Source: Escherichia phage brachmannus. From it: a stretch of 51,540 bases of DNA. The DNA is taken from the sequence record ON711395.1, one strand, 5' to 3'. The position numbers and the translations under genes were made by a program. This document shows positions 20,587 to 51,487 of the stretch, piece after piece. Position 1 is the stretch's first letter, and each line of letters begins with the position of its first letter. A model generated the notes under the pieces. That model was not told where the DNA came from. It made no database searches and worked only from the letters and a program-made list of their open reading frames with translations.

Positions 20587-21201
20587 TTAATCATAGTGCG
20601 ATGAATTTATAACCAAAACAGATGATGCCGTGTAAATACCAACAGGACCAGGAGTTTGCGCAACCTGCCTAGATAAAGAATATACCCCGTTGCCATACGC
20701 GGCAGCTTGAGACTCAAATATCATGAATCCACCTAAAGACGGATTGGGCACAGAGTTTAAAGCTGTTAGTGATGGCATGATGGCGCAAGGGTATCCCAAG
20801 TTAACGTCAAAAGCGATCCCGCTTACAGATACAAGTTTTGCATCCAAAGGCTTCATCTTTCCATGATAAACCATCTCACCATTAGCATTATAAAAAGCTA
20901 TTCCGTGACTACCAGGAGGAGTAACCATGTTGCTAAAAGCATAAACAAATACCTCGCCTTGATTGTCGGACTTTTCTATCTTTATTGCGTGCTTCCCACC
21001 ATTATTAAACTGAGTAAATGCTATGTATGATTTTGATGTTAACCTTACAAAAAAGAAGCACGGTCTATTTATTGGTATAGAAGTATTAAAAACGGTTCCT
21101 GTTCTTGCTGATATTTTCCCTTTATCTATAAGGTTAACAGGAGTGAAATCTGGACTTAACCACAATGAACCGTCCGGTTTTTTTATGCTCATCCCGTACA
21201 T
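20587..21201 (-). CDS. hypothetical protein (possible tail fibre-associated)
   Basis: ORF on minus strand; ATG at 21199-21201 with GGGGG RBS-like run (track start 21213 is TTG). Confidence 0.4.
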   Translation of the reverse strand: MYGMSIKKPDGSLWLSPDFTPVNLIDKGKISARTGTVFNTSIPINRPCFFFVRLTSKSYIAFTQFNNGGKHAIKIEKSDNQGEVFVYAFSNMVTPPGSHGIAFYNANGEMVYHGKMKPLDAKLVSVSGIAFDVNLGYPCAIMPSLTALNSVPNPSLGGFMIFESQAAAYGNGVYSLSRQVAQTPGPVGIYTASSVLVINSSHYD

Positions 21202-21203
21202 TA

Positions 21204-21482
21204 TTACCCCCAAAAAGTATATATATATCTTGAGTCAGATCCAGAAAGGCCACTCCATGTAACGGTATCACCACTTACACCCAACTTTGGAGCGCCTGGA
21301 TCGCCTCCTCGCCACGAATTAATTCCAACATATATTGCTTTCAAAGACTTACCTGGCGGCCTGTTTGAGTAGGTCTTACTGCCGGATGATTGGGTAAATT
21401 TATCCAAGAAAAAAACTGGAGTTAAAAGACCAGTAACATTTCTACCTTGCTCATCATATATTGCATACCCATATTCAGCCAT
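21204..21482 (-). CDS. hypothetical protein
   Basis: 92-aa ORF with GAGGTG RBS; ends in T5G5 homopolymer region abutting downstream ORF. Confidence 0.4.
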   Translation of the reverse strand: MAEYGYAIYDEQGRNVTGLLTPVFFLDKFTQSSGSKTYSNRPPGKSLKAIYVGINSWRGGDPGAPKLGVSGDTVTWSGLSGSDSRYIYTFWG

Positions 21483-21750
21483 TTTTGCACCTCAAATCAA
21501 TGAATTTTCTTTCATCTTGCCAACGGTTGATAAATTTAACTTCTTTATTGTCAACGCTCAACCTGTATTGCTTTTGGCTGAATCTGTTTTCGCGGACAGC
21601 ATTAATTTTAACTTCATGGAATCCGTTAACAGGGAATGTTTTAACGTTAAATTTTGCCGTGCAATCGATCTCCTTGAAGTTGCCAGTAGGCGAAGAAGAA
21701 CATCCGGTCAGAGCGGCTACGGTGGCGATAACTGCGATTAATTTTTTCAT
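21475..21750 (-). CDS. lipoprotein, candidate Cor/Llp-like superinfection exclusion protein
   Basis: signal peptide with lipobox LTGC; AAGGAG RBS; small size; located next to tail fibre genes with own promoter region. Confidence 0.45.
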   Translation of the reverse strand: MKKLIAVIATVAALTGCSSSPTGNFKEIDCTAKFNVKTFPVNGFHEVKINAVRENRFSQKQYRLSVDNKEVKFINRWQDERKFIDLRCKNG

Positions 21751-33229: not shown

Positions 33230-34345
33230 ATGAAAAATGTAAAAATTACAGATGAGCAATTCAAGATCGAACGGGCGGCTGGTAAGACATATAAACAGAT
33301 CGCTCAAGAGTACGGAATGAATGTGAGAAGCGTCGAGCGTCGCGCGGCGCGACTTGCAAAGCAAGGCCAAGTATCCACAATTGGAGCGCCTGGTTTTGGC
33401 GTTCATGGTGAGTCAGTAATGACTGACAAAGAAGGCAACATAATCCTAAAGTGGACTAAAACCAGCAAGGATAAAGAGCAATTAGAAGCATTAATGCGCG
33501 CAGCAATGGAGGCATTTAGCGAGGAAGTGCCGCGATTAGATCCGGTTCCATTACAGGAGCGCGACTATAACGAAACGCTTTCCTTGTATCCGATCTTTGA
33601 CATGCACTTAGGCGCTATGGCCCATAAGCACGAATGCGGCGAAAATTGGGATACTGCCACGGCAGAGCGCGTTATGAATAACTTTATCGACTATGCTTTA
33701 ATGTGCGCACCGGATAGCGAAAAGGCTGTCATCCTGATTGGCGGCGATATGCTGCATAGCGACGGCCTGGAGGCGGTTACACCTGCAAGCGGTCACGTAC
33801 TGGATCAAGATAGTCGATATGCAAAATTGGTTTACGTTGCCATCCGTGCAATGCGACGCGCAATCAATAAAATGTTGTTAAAGCATAAACATGTTGAAGT
33901 CCAGATCGTAGAGGGCAATCATGACCAATCAGGAATGATTTGGCTACGCGCAGCAATGGCGGCAGCATATGAAAACGAGCCGCGCGTTTACGTTGATGTT
34001 TCCCCTCGCGTTGTGCACCACACGCAATACGGAAAAACTTTCCTTGCGTACCATCACGGGCACACAGTGCGTAAACCGGAGGCTTTGCTAATGATGTGCG
34101 CGTCAGATTGGCGGGAGGACTTCGGAAACTCAAAAACGATGTATGCGCACGTAGGGCACTGGCATCACCAGACCGTGACAGAAACGTCTCTTGGCATCGT
34201 TGAGGTGCATAGCACCCTGGCGGCAAAAGACGCATACGCAGCGCGCGGTGGCTGGCGATCTCGACGCCGTGCGGCGGTTATCATTTACGACAAAGAGCAT
34301 GGAGAGGTTGGGCGATTTGTTCACTATCCAGAAATGATGAATTGA
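33230..34345 (+). CDS. calcineurin-like metallophosphoesterase with N-terminal HTH-like region
   Basis: motifs GDMLHSDG, EGNHD, HHGH, GHWHH; N-terminal KQIAQEYGMNVRSVERRAARL HTH-like. Confidence 0.5.
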   Translation: MKNVKITDEQFKIERAAGKTYKQIAQEYGMNVRSVERRAARLAKQGQVSTIGAPGFGVHGESVMTDKEGNIILKWTKTSKDKEQLEALMRAAMEAFSEEVPRLDPVPLQERDYNETLSLYPIFDMHLGAMAHKHECGENWDTATAERVMNNFIDYALMCAPDSEKAVILIGGDMLHSDGLEAVTPASGHVLDQDSRYAKLVYVAIRAMRRAINKMLLKHKHVEVQIVEGNHDQSGMIWLRAAMAAAYENEPRVYVDVSPRVVHHTQYGKTFLAYHHGHTVRKPEALLMMCASDWREDFGNSKTMYAHVGHWHHQTVTETSLGIVEVHSTLAAKDAYAARGGWRSRRRAAVIIYDKEHGEVGRFVHYPEMMN

Positions 34346-34389
34346 TGAATTTTTATTTAAATCAATGACAAATTAAATCAAAAACTTGC

Positions 34390-34421
34390 AAAGGGGCGGC
34401 GTTTGTCGCCTCTTTTTTTTG
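34390..34421 (+). terminator. terminator after phosphoesterase gene, before lysis cassette
   Basis: GC-rich hairpin then T8. Confidence 0.6.
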
Positions 34422-34490
34422 TTTAATTTTTTACCATGTACGTTTATCATGCGGTCAATATATTGACTTTAATTAATATGGAGAATAAAA

Positions 34491-34706
34491 ATGAAAGATT
34501 TTATTAACGCAGCTACCGCTGGATCTGGCGGTTCATCTATCGCAAGCGCCGCTACAGGGCAGTTAACCATTGCTATTGCCAGCTTTGTTTTAATGGCTGC
34601 ATTCGGTGCATGGGGCGCTTACCTTCGCTGGCGTGATAGTAAAAAATTCCACGAGGCGATCGAAAAAGGTGATATTCAAAAAGCTATTGAGATCAGGGGC
34701 AAGTAA
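34491..34706 (+). CDS. holin
   Basis: 71 aa, single hydrophobic TMD, charged C-terminus, immediately upstream of endolysin. Confidence 0.6.
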
Positions 34707-35197
34707 TGAGCATAAAGAACAGGGTAGCGGCTGCGGCCTTTGGCGTTGCGGTTGCCTTGACTTCTCCACTTCTTGAAGAGATCGAAGGTGTAAGATACAA
34801 GCCATACAAAGATATTGCTGGAGTATGGACGGTTTGCGCAGGAATCACCGGACCAGATGTTATCCTGGGGAAAACGTACACTAAAAAAGAGTGTGATGCT
34901 TTGTTGGCTAAGCATATCCAGGTTGCTAAAAAGGAAGTTGATAAGCAAGTTAAGGTTGACATTCCTGATAGTATGCGTGCAGCAATGTACTCATTCACCT
35001 ACAATGCAGGTGTGGGAGCTTTCAGAAATTCAACAATGCTGAAACTCATCAACCAGGGGAAATTAAGCGAGGCTTGCGATCAGCTTTATCGTTGGACGTA
35101 TTACCATAACCCAAAAACAGGAAAGCGCGAGAAGTCTAAAGGCTTACTTAACAGGCGCAAGGTCGAATACAAATATTGCACAATGGATCTGAAATGA
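34706..35197 (+). CDS. SAR endolysin (GH24 lysozyme)
   Basis: N-terminal signal-anchor-release-like hydrophobic segment; catalytic E-x8-D-x5-T motif ([16 protein letters not shown]). Confidence 0.8.
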
Positions 35198-35589
35198 TGA
35201 AGAAATTTTTAATCGCACCAATCGCAATGGCGGTGATCTTGTCTGGATGTTCAAGCGTTACGCCACTGACCGGATTAATCGGCAGTAAGCCGGAAATCAC
35301 AGCACAGGCTGGCGCGGAGAACGTGAAGCAGACAGTCGGCATTACAGCAAAGCAGGACACTAGCACAAAACAGGAAACCACAATAAAGGAATCTGCGGTT
35401 GATAAGGTGGACACGTCCAGCAAGAAGGATTTCACAACATCAACCATTCAGGCCAATACCATCAAGGCAGACAAAATTCAGGTCGTGCAGGGTAATAACG
35501 GCAGATGGTACGATCCAATAATCATATGCGTGGTTGTGTTCATTGTGCTGATTTGTCTTTACTGGAGGGAAAAGAAAAAGGAGGCTTAA
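35194..35589 (+). CDS. unimolecular spanin (u-spanin, T1 gp11-like)
   Basis: N-terminal lipoprotein signal with lipobox LSGC plus C-terminal transmembrane helix; start overlaps endolysin stop. Confidence 0.7.
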
Positions 35590-35603
35590 TGCCTCCTTTG
35601 TTA
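35574..35603. terminator. bidirectional terminator after lysis cassette
   Basis: AGGAGGC-TTAAT-GCCTCCT with flanking A and T tracts. Confidence 0.6.
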
Positions 35604-35783
35604 TTCGATACGCTTTACAGTAACCAACAAAACGCCGTCTTCATCACACAAATTATGCTCTGATATATCAAACGCTCGCATGTCAGAATGAATGAGCGTT
35701 AACATTGCGTGCATGAAGTCGTCATGTGAGATTTGAGAAGTGGCGCAAAATTTAAGAATTTCATCTATCAGTTTACTTTCCAT
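35601..35783 (-). CDS. hypothetical protein
   Basis: about 60 aa from internal ATG (MESKLIDE...). Confidence 0.35.
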   Translation of the reverse strand: MESKLIDEILKFCATSQISHDDFMHAMLTLIHSDMRAFDISEHNLCDEDGVLLVTVKRIE

Positions 35784-36246
35784 GATTTTTGTGGTAGCCA
35801 AATTTAACCTCCGCCTGTTCCCTTGCCTTAATTGCATCATCAAGACTTAAAAAATATCCTAAATGCACGCTCTTACCGTTATCATATATAGTTGCGTGCC
35901 ATCTTTTGTTTTTCTTATTCCAGCAAACACCAACTCGACCAGAGTTATTTCTTTTTAGTAGAGATACGTTTTTGCTGTTATCTAATCTTGATGCAAGCCT
36001 TAGATTTTCAATTCTGTTATCGCTCCTATTGTGCCATATATGGTCTATTTCCATTCCTTCTGGTATTTTTCCATTGTGCATTTCCCATATTATCCTATGC
36101 GCCAAAAACAATACACCATTATACCTTATTCTCACATATCCATTTTCACATACACATCCCGCAACGCTTCCAGGCTTTGCTTTCCCTCTTCTGTTTCTCC
36201 ATCTCAATATTCCATTGTCATATATAAATACTTCATTCCAATCCAT
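35773..36246 (-). CDS. HNH homing endonuclease with AP2-like domain (paralog of 16428-16904)
   Basis: EIDHIWHN...NLRL HNH motif; AT-rich, AGA/AGG codons; similar to first HNH gene. Confidence 0.8.
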   Translation of the reverse strand: MDWNEVFIYDNGILRWRNRRGKAKPGSVAGCVCENGYVRIRYNGVLFLAHRIIWEMHNGKIPEGMEIDHIWHNRSDNRIENLRLASRLDNSKNVSLLKRNNSGRVGVCWNKKNKRWHATIYDNGKSVHLGYFLSLDDAIKAREQAEVKFGYHKNHGK

Positions 36247-42771: not shown

Positions 42772-43236
42772 ATGAGCGAGCAATCATTCACTGACACGCT
42801 GCGCCGTGCAGCTATTATGCTGGCTAATGGCGAGGAAGAGACGATCAAGATTCCTGACGCGTATTTGCAGGTCCACATGTTCGGTAAGAAGTCGGCAAGC
42901 AATCCGGCGGCCTACATTCGCCAGATCATGAGTCGAGTGCCAGAAGTCGCCGAGCGGGGGCGCGTATCCGTTACCCGTGGCGTTTACGGGCCGGAAGATG
43001 AAAACTTCGGTAGCACTTTCTACGAGGTGCGGATTGTTGAAGGCCGTCGCAAGGTTTACAACAAAGAGGCACTGGAAAAGGCAGTGCGCCAGGCTAAGCG
43101 CAAGGTTGCAGAGGCGATCATTGATATGTCACCAAACCTGGCAAACTATGCGCCGGAAGAGTACGAAACATTATCAAAGGCCGTCGCTGACTTTCACGCG
43201 ATGATCAAAAAAACTTTCCTGGAGGATGAGCAATGA
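42772..43236 (+). CDS. hypothetical protein (first plus-strand early gene)
   Basis: 154 aa, AGGAGG RBS, downstream of TTGACA-17-GATAAT promoter. Confidence 0.55.
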   Translation: MSEQSFTDTLRRAAIMLANGEEETIKIPDAYLQVHMFGKKSASNPAAYIRQIMSRVPEVAERGRVSVTRGVYGPEDENFGSTFYEVRIVEGRRKVYNKEALEKAVRQAKRKVAEAIIDMSPNLANYAPEEYETLSKAVADFHAMIKKTFLEDEQ

Positions 43237-43505
43237 AAAAGGCATTAATCAGCGTTTTGGCGGCAATGGCATTCCTGACCGGATGCAAAGAAGATGGCGC
43301 GCATGTTGGCAATGTGCAGATGGCTAACCCTGGCGATGACTACAGCGTAAGGGAGCTATTCACCGCTGACGGTTGCACCGTTTACCGATTCTATGACGAT
43401 CGCACTGTTTACTTCACCAACTGTAAGGGCACGACTATCTGGGAAGTGTCGAAAAGCAATGGCAAAGGCACGAAGACAGAACATATGACCGTCGAGACAA
43501 AATAG
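43233..43505 (+). CDS. small lipoprotein
   Basis: signal peptide with lipobox LTGC. Confidence 0.5.
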   Translation: MKKALISVLAAMAFLTGCKEDGAHVGNVQMANPGDDYSVRELFTADGCTVYRFYDDRTVYFTNCKGTTIWEVSKSNGKGTKTEHMTVETK

Positions 43506-45473: not shown

Positions 45474-45706
45474 TGATCATTGAAAACAACTTTCTTTGCG
45501 TTAAGAGCAATAGACCATTCTTCACGCCTGGCAAGGTGTACCAGGGCAAGAAGGACACAAGAGATGGTCACTCTTATCATGTTCACTGCAACAACGGATA
45601 CAAGTTTTACCTTAACGGCGAGAATGGAACTGAGATCGTTGCGTTTGAAAACGTAGTTGCAGAGTTCGAGCAGGTTACAGACGCGGAATTTGAGGAAGTG
45701 CAATAA
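45473..45706 (+). CDS. hypothetical protein (paralog of previous gene)
   Basis: 77 aa; tandem duplicate. Confidence 0.5.
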   Translation: MIIENNFLCVKSNRPFFTPGKVYQGKKDTRDGHSYHVHCNNGYKFYLNGENGTEIVAFENVVAEFEQVTDAEFEEVQ

Positions 45707-45888
45707 TGGATGATTTTACTCGGCTTGTTCTCGGCTGGATTGTGTTTCTTTTTGCGTGGCTTATCCACTGTGCGAGGCATAAATTCAGACTGAGCTATGA
45801 TAATTCATTCGTTATGACCTGCTTCAGTATTCCAGGATGGATCATTTTGCTTGTGGCTACTGCTGAATACATCCATAAAACATTTTAA
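45706..45888 (+). CDS. small membrane protein
   Basis: 60 aa with two hydrophobic segments. Confidence 0.4.
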   Translation: MDDFTRLVLGWIVFLFAWLIHCARHKFRLSYDNSFVMTCFSIPGWIILLVATAEYIHKTF

Positions 45889-46718: not shown

Positions 46719-46982
46719 ATGGCTAACAAGATCGAATTTTTTAAAGCGGTAGACATTATTGATGGTGCGCCTAGCTTCTTTGCGATCCATTCTATTGACG
46801 GCAAGGATATTGGGTACAACGTTATCAGTCGAGATGGAATATCAAAACTTAGTGACCTGGTAGGCCATATTGTGTCAATCGGGAAATGCGCATGGCCCGA
46901 TTCGCCACGAGAGCCGCTCCGCAGCGACATGATTAATCCTGAATTGCTTTACACGCTGGTAGTAGAGGGAGAAAATAAATGA
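46719..46982 (+). CDS. hypothetical protein
   Basis: 87 aa. Confidence 0.45.
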   Translation: MANKIEFFKAVDIIDGAPSFFAIHSIDGKDIGYNVISRDGISKLSDLVGHIVSIGKCAWPDSPREPLRSDMINPELLYTLVVEGENK

Positions 46983-47164
46983 TTTGGTTACTTGCTTTTT
47001 TGGTTGTTTTTCTTTACATTTCAGGCTTGTTTACGTTCCGCGCGTTGGTGAAATATTCTGACGCGACAGACAAAGACGATAAAATCGTTCTCGCTTTCTG
47101 GTTTGTTTGGGTGTGGTTAGCAATTTACGAGAACATCAGAGACAAACAGAAATTTGAGTGGTGA
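46979..47164 (+). CDS. small membrane protein
   Basis: 61 aa hydrophobic. Confidence 0.4.
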   Translation: MIWLLAFLVVFLYISGLFTFRALVKYSDATDKDDKIVLAFWFVWVWLAIYENIRDKQKFEW

Positions 47165-48699: not shown

Positions 48700-48948
48700 A
48701 TGGTTTTTAACGCATTGAAACGACTGTTTAAGCCGGAATACCGGATCGTATTTTGCCGCGACTGTTCTACTTATCATGTGCAGCGACGCAGCTTAGGCGG
48801 CAATTGGCACTATGTTACAGATGACTTTTTCGGCATCATTGCCACTGAATTTAAGTGTTATAGCGATGCTTATATGTACGTCAAGAAGCGCCACCGCTTA
48901 CGCAAGTGTCGTTTTTCCGCACTGATTCACTTTAATGATTGTTACTGA
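48700..48948 (+). CDS. hypothetical Cys-containing protein
   Basis: 82 aa; CRDC...C pattern. Confidence 0.4.
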   Translation: MVFNALKRLFKPEYRIVFCRDCSTYHVQRRSLGGNWHYVTDDFFGIIATEFKCYSDAYMYVKKRHRLRKCRFSALIHFNDCY

Positions 48949-48955
48949 GGTGAAA

Positions 48956-49138
48956 ATGAAAACTGGTGTTATTATTCTTTTTCTGATCCTTTTAGGCAGC
49001 CATTTAACCATTAACTATGAGGGCATTATGGCCTTTTGGGGCAACTTGATGATGTTTGCTGCTGGTTCAATTGCTGGCTACTCTGACGGGAAAAATGATG
49101 GTGTGCGCAAGATGCTGATGGGGCTTAAACAAAAATAA
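48956..49138 (+). CDS. small membrane protein
   Basis: ATG 48956 with GAGGTG RBS; two hydrophobic helices. Confidence 0.4.
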   Translation: MKTGVIILFLILLGSHLTINYEGIMAFWGNLMMFAAGSIAGYSDGKNDGVRKMLMGLKQK

Positions 49139-51124: not shown

Positions 51125-51266
51125 TTGCCAATCATGCAAACAGGAATATGAATGCGTAGTTGATGCTCTTGATGAACTTGAAGCAGTAGCAAAAGCAAAA
51201 GAGCAATCGGGCGCTAATCCTGAAACACATCAATTTTCAATTAACCTTGTGAGGGCTTTACAATGA
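51099..51266 (+). CDS. small Cys-containing protein (start uncertain)
   Basis: CQSC...C pattern; overlaps previous gene end. Confidence 0.3.
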   Translation: MTIRRMGRNCQSCKQEYECVVDALDELEAVAKAKEQSGANPETHQFSINLVRALQ

Positions 51267-51487
51267 TCGCATTATCTTTCTGCATTGGTTTTATCATGGC
51301 TATCATTATCTTTTCCGTTGTCATGCGCTTTGCTTATAAGTTCGTGATCAATAAAGGCTGGTACGCTTCTGCAATCTGGAGCGAAAAACAAAAGAAATGG
51401 CTTGTACGTGGTCAATACCTGATGATCGGCAGCAAGATCCTAAATTCCATTCGAGCCAAAGATGGAAAAGTAAAATATACAGCTTAA
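51263..51487 (+). CDS. small membrane protein
   Basis: 74 aa, N-terminal TMD; followed by intrinsic terminator. Confidence 0.45.
   Translation: MIALSFCIGFIMAIIIFSVVMRFAYKFVINKGWYASAIWSEKQKKWLVRGQYLMIGSKILNSIRAKDGKVKYTA

Follow-up and report, generated by a model that had tools for sequence, protein, structure and literature searches.

The closest described counterparts of the locus reported here are the lysis genes of phage T1, in which the holin, endolysin and spanin genes (13, 12 and 11) follow an exonuclease gene (gene 16). T1 gene 11 is the prototype of the unimolecular spanins (u-spanins); it complements a lambda Rz/Rz1 defect and defines the class (PMC6139136). Membership of the T1gp11 family requires at least 40% identity across at least 40% of the length, and the 28 members recognized in 2018, of which phage F19 is one, are with two exceptions found in cassettes together with a pinholin and an endolysin of the signal-anchor-release (SAR) type; the periplasmic domain of the family is described as a short helix and, after it, at least four beta elements (PMC6139136). 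T1 gp12 is a predicted SAR endolysin, and the cassette of phage TLS has similarly been described as combining a pinholin with a SAR endolysin and a u-spanin of the T1 family, the holin being assigned to class II of the pinholins with two proposed transmembrane segments (PMC11447400). The name pinholin is applied to the T1-family holins as a prediction only (PMC6139136, PMC11447400, and the KanT1 paper, PMC13164509). A module of exonuclease, holin, endolysin and spanin genes is present in 508 of 522 Drexlerviridae genomes, and a standalone SH3 gene (T1 gene 14) lies beside the cassette in 188 genomes, mostly of the Tunavirinae, Braunvirinae and Rogunavirinae (PMC13164509). A more distant point of reference is the lysis cassette of phage 21 and of the DLP12 prophage, with an S21/EssD holin, an R21/RrrD endolysin and a spanin of the Rz/Rz1 type (RzpD/RzoD).

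Organization of the lysis cassette

The window, by which we mean the whole 51,540-nucleotide stretch of DNA analyzed, contains three forward-strand open reading frames at exactly the position (34491–35589) where the original prediction had placed a compact cassette of holin, SAR endolysin and u-spanin, and all of these assignments hold. The features of the cassette and its flanks are as follows.

34390–34425, + strand: terminator-like hairpin with a run of T that closes the upstream exonuclease gene and bounds the lysis unit on the left (11-pair stem with 6 G-C pairs, then TTTTTGTTTA)
34491–35589, + strand: lysis cassette of three overlapping genes (holin, endolysin, u-spanin)
34491–34706, + strand: holin gene, 71 aa, ortholog of T1 gp13 (phrog_2877 holin; 55% identity to T1 gp13)
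34706–35197, + strand: endolysin gene, 163 aa, coding for a muramidase of the T4 lysozyme type (R21 SAR class), ortholog of T1 gp12 (PF00959; T1 gp12; 3hde)
34724–34774, + strand: predicted signal-anchor-release segment, endolysin residues 7–23 (composition; alignment with the R21 SAR domain)
34784–34831, + strand: catalytic triad region of the endolysin, E27-x8-D36-x5-T42 (pattern match, alignment)
35194–35589, + strand: unimolecular spanin gene, 131 aa, ortholog of T1 gp11 (phrog_1804; T1 gp11; synteny)
35194–35250, + strand: signal peptide of the spanin lipoprotein, ending in the LSGC lipobox; Cys19, encoded at 35248–35250, is predicted to be acylated (pattern match, alignment)
35512–35565, + strand: the spanin's C-terminal transmembrane helix, approximately residues 107–124 (hydropathy, AlphaFold2, eight relatives)
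35577–35599, strand unassigned: G+C-rich hairpin AAAGGAGGC-TTAAT-GCCTCCTTT, which overlaps the stop codon of the spanin gene (hairpin scan, - strand)

The motif, profile and homolog matches for the three genes are far beyond chance level, and NCBIfam gave nothing above cut-off for the holin, the endolysin or the spanin. Membrane and lipoprotein calls here and below are based on Kyte-Doolittle hydropathy, a PROSITE-style lipoprotein pattern and homology. The genes are tightly coupled; the holin ATG has a GGAG 8 nt upstream, the holin stop codon and the endolysin ATG overlap by one base (TAATG), and the endolysin stop codon overlaps the spanin ATG (ATGA). For the spanin, a mechanical list of open reading frames begins at a TTG at 35176, and the RefSeq annotation of the near-identical phage tonnikala uses the ATG that gives a 131-residue protein.

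The hairpin at the right end of the cassette was reported on the reverse strand and is followed on the forward strand by TTTGTTATT; it is probably a terminator for convergent genes of both strands. A promoter scan returned two sites, with 3.5 expected by chance, and one of the two overlaps a start codon, so we do not claim a promoter for the cassette.

The region from 34300 to 35800 is 97.9% identical in DNA sequence to Escherichia phage tonnikala (Drexlerviridae, Tempevirinae, Warwickvirus), and many further coliphages of this group match the 1.5-kb region at about 98% identity. Judged by these sequence comparisons the source is a T1-like siphophage of the Drexlerviridae, genus Warwickvirus, and the segment 34491–35589 is very probably its late lysis operon, orthologous to T1 genes 13-12-11; none of our results speaks against this identification.

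Comparison with T1 and other phages

The cassette contains the same three genes as that of T1, in the same order and after the same exonuclease gene. The LSGC lipobox and the spacing of the catalytic triad are identical in the two phages, and the T1 annotation places a terminator across the end of gene 11, just as the window cassette ends at a probable terminator facing convergent genes. There are departures on the left side. In T1 a rho-independent terminator lies just past gene 16, and two genes (15 and 14), an HNH endonuclease gene and a small SH3-like gene (gene 14), are located between the exonuclease and holin genes and separate the terminator from the latter, whereas in the window there is only a 145-nt spacer. 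We found no homolog of the standalone SH3 gene in the window, the best tblastn match having an E-value of 0.11 and falling outside any listed reading frame of at least 25 aa. This agrees with the Tempevirinae affiliation and with the reported scarcity of gene 14 outside the Tunavirinae, Braunvirinae and Rogunavirinae. A smaller difference is that the cytoplasmic tail of the window spanin is a few residues shorter than that of T1 gp11.

Phage tonnikala is the nearest comparison at the protein level. In the RefSeq record a DNA repair exonuclease gene is followed immediately by holin, endolysin and Rz-like spanin genes, and tonnikala gp09–gp11 differ from the window proteins by point substitutions only, with none in the holin, three in the endolysin and seven in the spanin. 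Phage TLS, also of the Tempevirinae, has the same layout (HolN, LysN and RzlA), although its holin has a possible dual start (M1RDFLLM) that the window holin lacks. Besides T1, the spanin gene is the last in a holin–endolysin–spanin cassette in all four of the siphophages compared (TLS, Rtp, Shfl1 and Klebsiella phage KL).

More distant systems share some of these components and not others. In phage 21/DLP12 the order of holin, endolysin and spanin genes and the overlapping junctions are as in the window, and the endolysin is a clear homolog, including its SAR region, but the linker from the SAR segment to the catalytic Glu is six residues shorter in the window than in R21. The holin EssD has no detectable similarity to the window holin, and the spanin is a two-component embedded pair, whereas that of the window is a single protein. 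In the KP34-like podophages F19 (Klebsiella) and Buco (Shigella) of the Autographiviridae the spanins are of the same family as that of the window (40–43% identity, with the invariant G-C-S and a C-terminal helix), but the order is spanin–holin–endolysin, and neither the endolysin nor the holin is the same protein as in the window.

Endolysin

The second gene of the cassette codes for a lysozyme that matches PF00959 (Phage_lysozyme) with 133.6 bits (E 6.2e-39; the Pfam gathering cut-off is 22.3) and is 66% identical to T1 gp12 (E 1e-80). Its catalytic triad was found by pattern match as E27-x8-D36-x5-T42, and all three residues are invariant in an alignment of its relatives. The N-terminus consists of a basic MSIKNR followed by 17 uncharged residues, 53% of which are Gly, Ala, Ser or Thr; the segment is Ala/Gly-rich and weakly hydrophobic, the best 19-residue Kyte-Doolittle mean being 1.44, below the 1.6 usually required of a stable membrane helix. 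The catalytic Glu27 comes just three residues after this segment, whose position is conserved among the aligned T1-like endolysins.

The best solved relatives are R21 (3hde, full length, and 3hdf) and RrrD of DLP12 (4zpu), with E-values of 5e-47 to 5e-45. Residues 2–159 of the window protein align with the phage 21 SAR endolysin R21 in 3hde (E 4.7e-47), and the 3hde and 4zpu alignments both begin at residue 2 and span the SAR domain. Our alignment of endolysins also has an R21 row; for the comparison with R21 we rely on the independent 3hde and 4zpu alignments. The SAR-like segment and the triad that the original prediction had described are thus both present, the segment aligning with the SAR region of R21 and the triad lying at E27, D36 and T42.

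Two modes of activation have been described for SAR endolysins, refolding as in R21 and disulfide isomerization as in P1 Lyz. The SAR segment of the window endolysin contains no Cys, which therefore points to activation of the R21 type and not of the disulfide-caged P1 Lyz type. An assignment as a SAR endolysin of the R21 type (glycoside hydrolase family 24) is supported, and by analogy with R21 the enzyme would be exported by Sec, tethered to the membrane and released on depolarization.

Spanin

The third gene product matches phrog_1804 (Rz-like spanin) with an E-value of 6.5e-48, and homologs are present in 1096 phage records. It is 47% identical to T1 gp11 (E 1e-38) over 131 of 133 residues, the alignment taking in residues 2–131 of the 131 of the window protein. 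Its N-terminus fits the PROSITE-style lipoprotein pattern, with an LSGC lipobox, Cys19 and Ser20 at the +2 position; Ser at +2 is compatible with sorting to the outer membrane by the Lol system. The signal is followed by an 89-residue periplasmic segment rich in Thr, Lys, Ser and Gln, and the protein ends with a hydrophobic stretch (about residues 105–124; 19-residue Kyte-Doolittle mean of 2.43) and a basic tail, REKKKEA. In a hydropathy scan this C-terminal helix was the most hydrophobic stretch among the credible genes of the window.

We also modeled the single spanin sequence with AlphaFold2, without an alignment. Confident helices were predicted only at residues 4–19 and 108–130, the block-mean pLDDT being 81–87 over residues 111–130, and residues 20–107 were without secondary structure at pLDDT 42–49. 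The beta-rich periplasmic domain known from the family is not reproduced in this model, which speaks neither for nor against it.

An alignment of eight spanin relatives, with members from T1, Shfl1, TLS, Rtp, Klebsiella phage KL and the podophages F19 and Buco, spans four Drexlerviridae lineages and two Autographiviridae genera. There are 19 invariant columns, among them G18-C19-S20, and the C-terminal hydrophobic block and basic tail are at the same place in all eight, with the sequence of the block varying. The window spanin is 40–55% identical to seven members of the T1gp11 family, and the 47% identity to T1 gp11 over the full length is within the limits by which that family is defined. On the strength of this sequence evidence the third gene is an ortholog of the prototype u-spanin T1 gp11 and not simply a look-alike, and the function of its product is predicted from that orthology. 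The original prediction of a T1 gp11-like u-spanin, with a lipobox and a transmembrane domain at its C-terminus, is therefore borne out by a full-length homolog at the same genome position in a T1-like phage, and by pattern, hydropathy and homology for the two membrane features.

Other lipoproteins and candidate spanins

The window was also claimed to encode a single spanin and no separate pair. We scanned every reading frame from every possible start for lipoprotein signals, and every open reading frame of at least 50 aa for membrane helices. Besides the u-spanin and reading frames that are not credible, the lipoprotein scan of the whole window in all six frames yielded only two proteins:

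21475–21750, - strand: Cor-like exclusion lipoprotein (phrog_1119)
43233–43505, + strand: DUF4884 lipoprotein (lipoprotein scan)

The Cor-like gene is placed among reverse-strand genes between the tail and recombination genes. No neighbor of either lipoprotein gene codes for a protein with an N-terminal membrane helix, and no credible reading frame of i-spanin size (at least 90 aa) in the window starts with one. Two alternative-frame reading frames within the spanin gene (35399–35521 and 35505–35663) have no lipobox, and an antisense reading frame at 35148–35447 was caught by a loose lipoprotein pattern but is not credible. By the lipobox and N-terminal-helix scans the window thus contains no two-component spanin of the Rz/Rz1 type, either separate or embedded, and the claim of a single spanin stands.

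Holin

The holin matches phrog_2877 (holin) over residues 1–71 of 71 (E 3.8e-32) and aligns with T1 gp13 along all 71 residues at 55% identity (E 4e-29). Five aligned T1-like holins share 18 invariant columns, and the tonnikala holin is identical to that of the window. To call it a pinholin is a reasonable inference from its pairing with a SAR endolysin.

Alternative interpretations

Two of the gene assignments invite comparison with other kinds of exported protein. A lipoprotein of the Cor or Llp kind, which would act in superinfection exclusion by blocking the outer-membrane receptor of the phage, is suggested for the third gene because residues 2–66 match phrog_1119 weakly (Cor superinfection exclusion protein; E 7.9e-06), but most of this match falls in the region of the signal peptide and lipobox, and the spanin match is 42 orders of magnitude stronger. 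The third protein has a C-terminal membrane helix that the Cor-like lipoprotein of the window lacks, and its full-length homolog T1 gp11 complements lambda Rz/Rz1 (PMC6139136). With so weak a signal-region match, and with a separate Cor-like gene already encoded at 21475–21750 on the reverse strand, we reject the Cor-like reading of the third gene as extremely improbable and retain its assignment as a u-spanin. The N-terminal segment of the endolysin can likewise be read as a cleavable Sec signal peptide, giving a soluble periplasmic enzyme that is controlled by means other than signal-anchor release; the shortness of the uncharged stretch (17 residues) and an AVA at residues 15–17 that resembles a signal-peptidase I site are in keeping with this. 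However, a cut at residue 17 would leave very little protein ahead of the active site, with Glu27 following three residues after the stretch, and the Ala/Gly richness is as in SAR domains. In alignments the segment matches the SAR domain of R21 and RrrD, whose membrane-tethered and released structures are known (3hde, 3hdf, 4zpu), and T1 gp12 and its relatives have been classed as SAR endolysins (PMC6139136, PMC11447400, PMC13164509). Because the segment is homologous to a proven SAR domain, a cleavable signal peptide is unlikely, and we give it little weight beside signal-anchor release.

The class of the holin is less settled. Residues ~25–45 form one clear membrane helix (mean hydropathy 1.83), followed by a charged C-terminal tail, and they are the only part of the protein to pass the standard hydropathy threshold; the T1 record likewise annotates gp13 with a single transmembrane domain. 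These features, together with the lack of a charged or polar loop between residues 4–23 and 25–45, would suit a conventional large-hole holin, or a single-pass holin with the N-terminus out and the C-terminus in, in place of a two-helix pinholin of the S21 kind. The holin also gave no BLASTP alignment with the S21-type pinholin EssD at E-values up to 100 and no match to a Pfam holin family at E-values up to 1, and for these reasons its second membrane segment is uncertain. The composition of residues 4–23 argues in the other direction; 80% of them are Gly, Ala, Ser or Thr, and their mean hydropathy of 0.65 is close to the 0.70 of the releasable first transmembrane domain of EssD. Depolarization is all that the partner SAR endolysin requires, and the T1 and TLS holins are termed pinholins in the literature, by prediction (PMC6139136, PMC11447400, PMC13164509). 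We consider a holin that is not of the two-helix pinholin kind to be possible, although the less probable reading.

A proposed model for lysis

Our analysis shows the structure of the genes, their motifs, homology and synteny, and that a two-component spanin is lacking. The events of lysis can be proposed from work on T1 gp11 and on R21 of phage 21, and it is from these orthologs that we infer how the endolysin is exported, tethered and released, how large a hole the holin makes, and that the membranes fuse. The endolysin would be exported by the host Sec system and held inactive, tethered to the inner membrane through its weakly hydrophobic N-terminal SAR segment, while the 71-aa holin builds up in the same membrane. 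At a set time the holin would trigger and collapse the proton-motive force. On depolarization the SAR segment would leave the bilayer, and the enzyme would refold to its active form and degrade the peptidoglycan. The spanin would by then already span the periplasm, with the acylated Cys19 in the outer membrane, as the Ser at +2 suggests, and the C-terminal helix in the inner membrane, and would be held in the mesh of the cell wall until the wall is degraded. With the mesh gone, it would fuse the two membranes, so that the outer membrane is destroyed and the virions are released.

Implications

The cassette is a well-described lysis module typical of the T1-like phages and is already known; its compactness reflects a layout found across the family and is nothing special to this phage (PMC13164509, PMC6139136). 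The significance of the analysis lies mainly in correct annotation, with the window confirmed as that of a T1-like phage that has a single-protein spanin route through the outer membrane, a route for which T1 supplied the description and the tests and which has been surveyed throughout the family.

The one wider scientific point that the locus touches is the topology of T1-type holins and the size of the hole they make, both of which are asserted in the literature by analogy. We tentatively suggest, as the less favored possibility, that the T1-family holin may be a single-pass protein with its N-terminus out and its C-terminus in, the Gly/Ala/Ser-rich N-terminal 24 residues being periplasmic. 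If true, this would make the T1-family holins a structurally distinct class of depolarizing holins whose partnership with SAR endolysins is convergent, and it would apply to the family as a whole and not to this phage in particular.

Regions flanking the lysis cassette

Two leftwards-oriented reading frames, together spanning 35601–36246, adjoin the G+C-rich hairpin, probably a terminator, that overlaps the stop codon of the spanin gene:

35601–35843, minus strand, 80-residue open reading frame with no match in the family search
35773–36246, minus strand, HNH_3 endonuclease (PF13392, E = 8e-22) with a weak AP2-like region

Among the best 20 matching records listed, the near-identical phage tonnikala is the only one that matches this stretch, and in the others the match to the window ends at approximately 35599–35605. 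The segment looks like a homing-endonuclease insertion adjoining the cassette. On the other side, the exonuclease and holin genes are separated by a spacer of only 145 nt (34346–34490) containing a terminator-like hairpin, whereas in phage T1 this site is occupied by two genes, one for an HNH endonuclease and the SH3-like gene 14; no homologue of T1 gene 14 was found anywhere in the window.

Other small lipoproteins and membrane proteins

The window encodes two other small lipoproteins:

21475–21750, minus strand, 91-residue Cor-like lipoprotein (MKKLIAVIATVAALTGC...)
43233–43505, plus strand, 90-residue lipoprotein with the lipobox LTGC

The first matches phrog_1119, the Cor superinfection-exclusion family, weakly (E = 6e-08), and lies immediately upstream of two small minus-strand reading frames (21204–21482 and 20587–21213). 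The second is not spanin-like; it matches DUF4884 at 31.8 bits, barely over the cut-off of 30, as well as PHROGs of unknown function, and its start is overlapped by the stop of an upstream 154-residue gene. A hydropathy scan also picked out several reading frames of 60–74 residues, each containing one or two strongly hydrophobic helices; they probably belong to the early region:

45706–45888, plus strand, small predicted membrane protein
46979–47164, plus strand, small predicted membrane protein
48935–49138, plus strand, small predicted membrane protein
51263–51487, plus strand, small predicted membrane protein

The cassette in records labelled Campylobacter phage

Phage database matches place the lysis cassette in about twenty records named ‘Campylobacter phage’, with Campylobacter jejuni as the listed host; the spanin of one of these, A136 (MG065687.1), is 88% identical to the window spanin over residues 1–108. 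A resemblance this strong to T1-like phages of E. coli suggests incorrect host labels or contaminated preparations.
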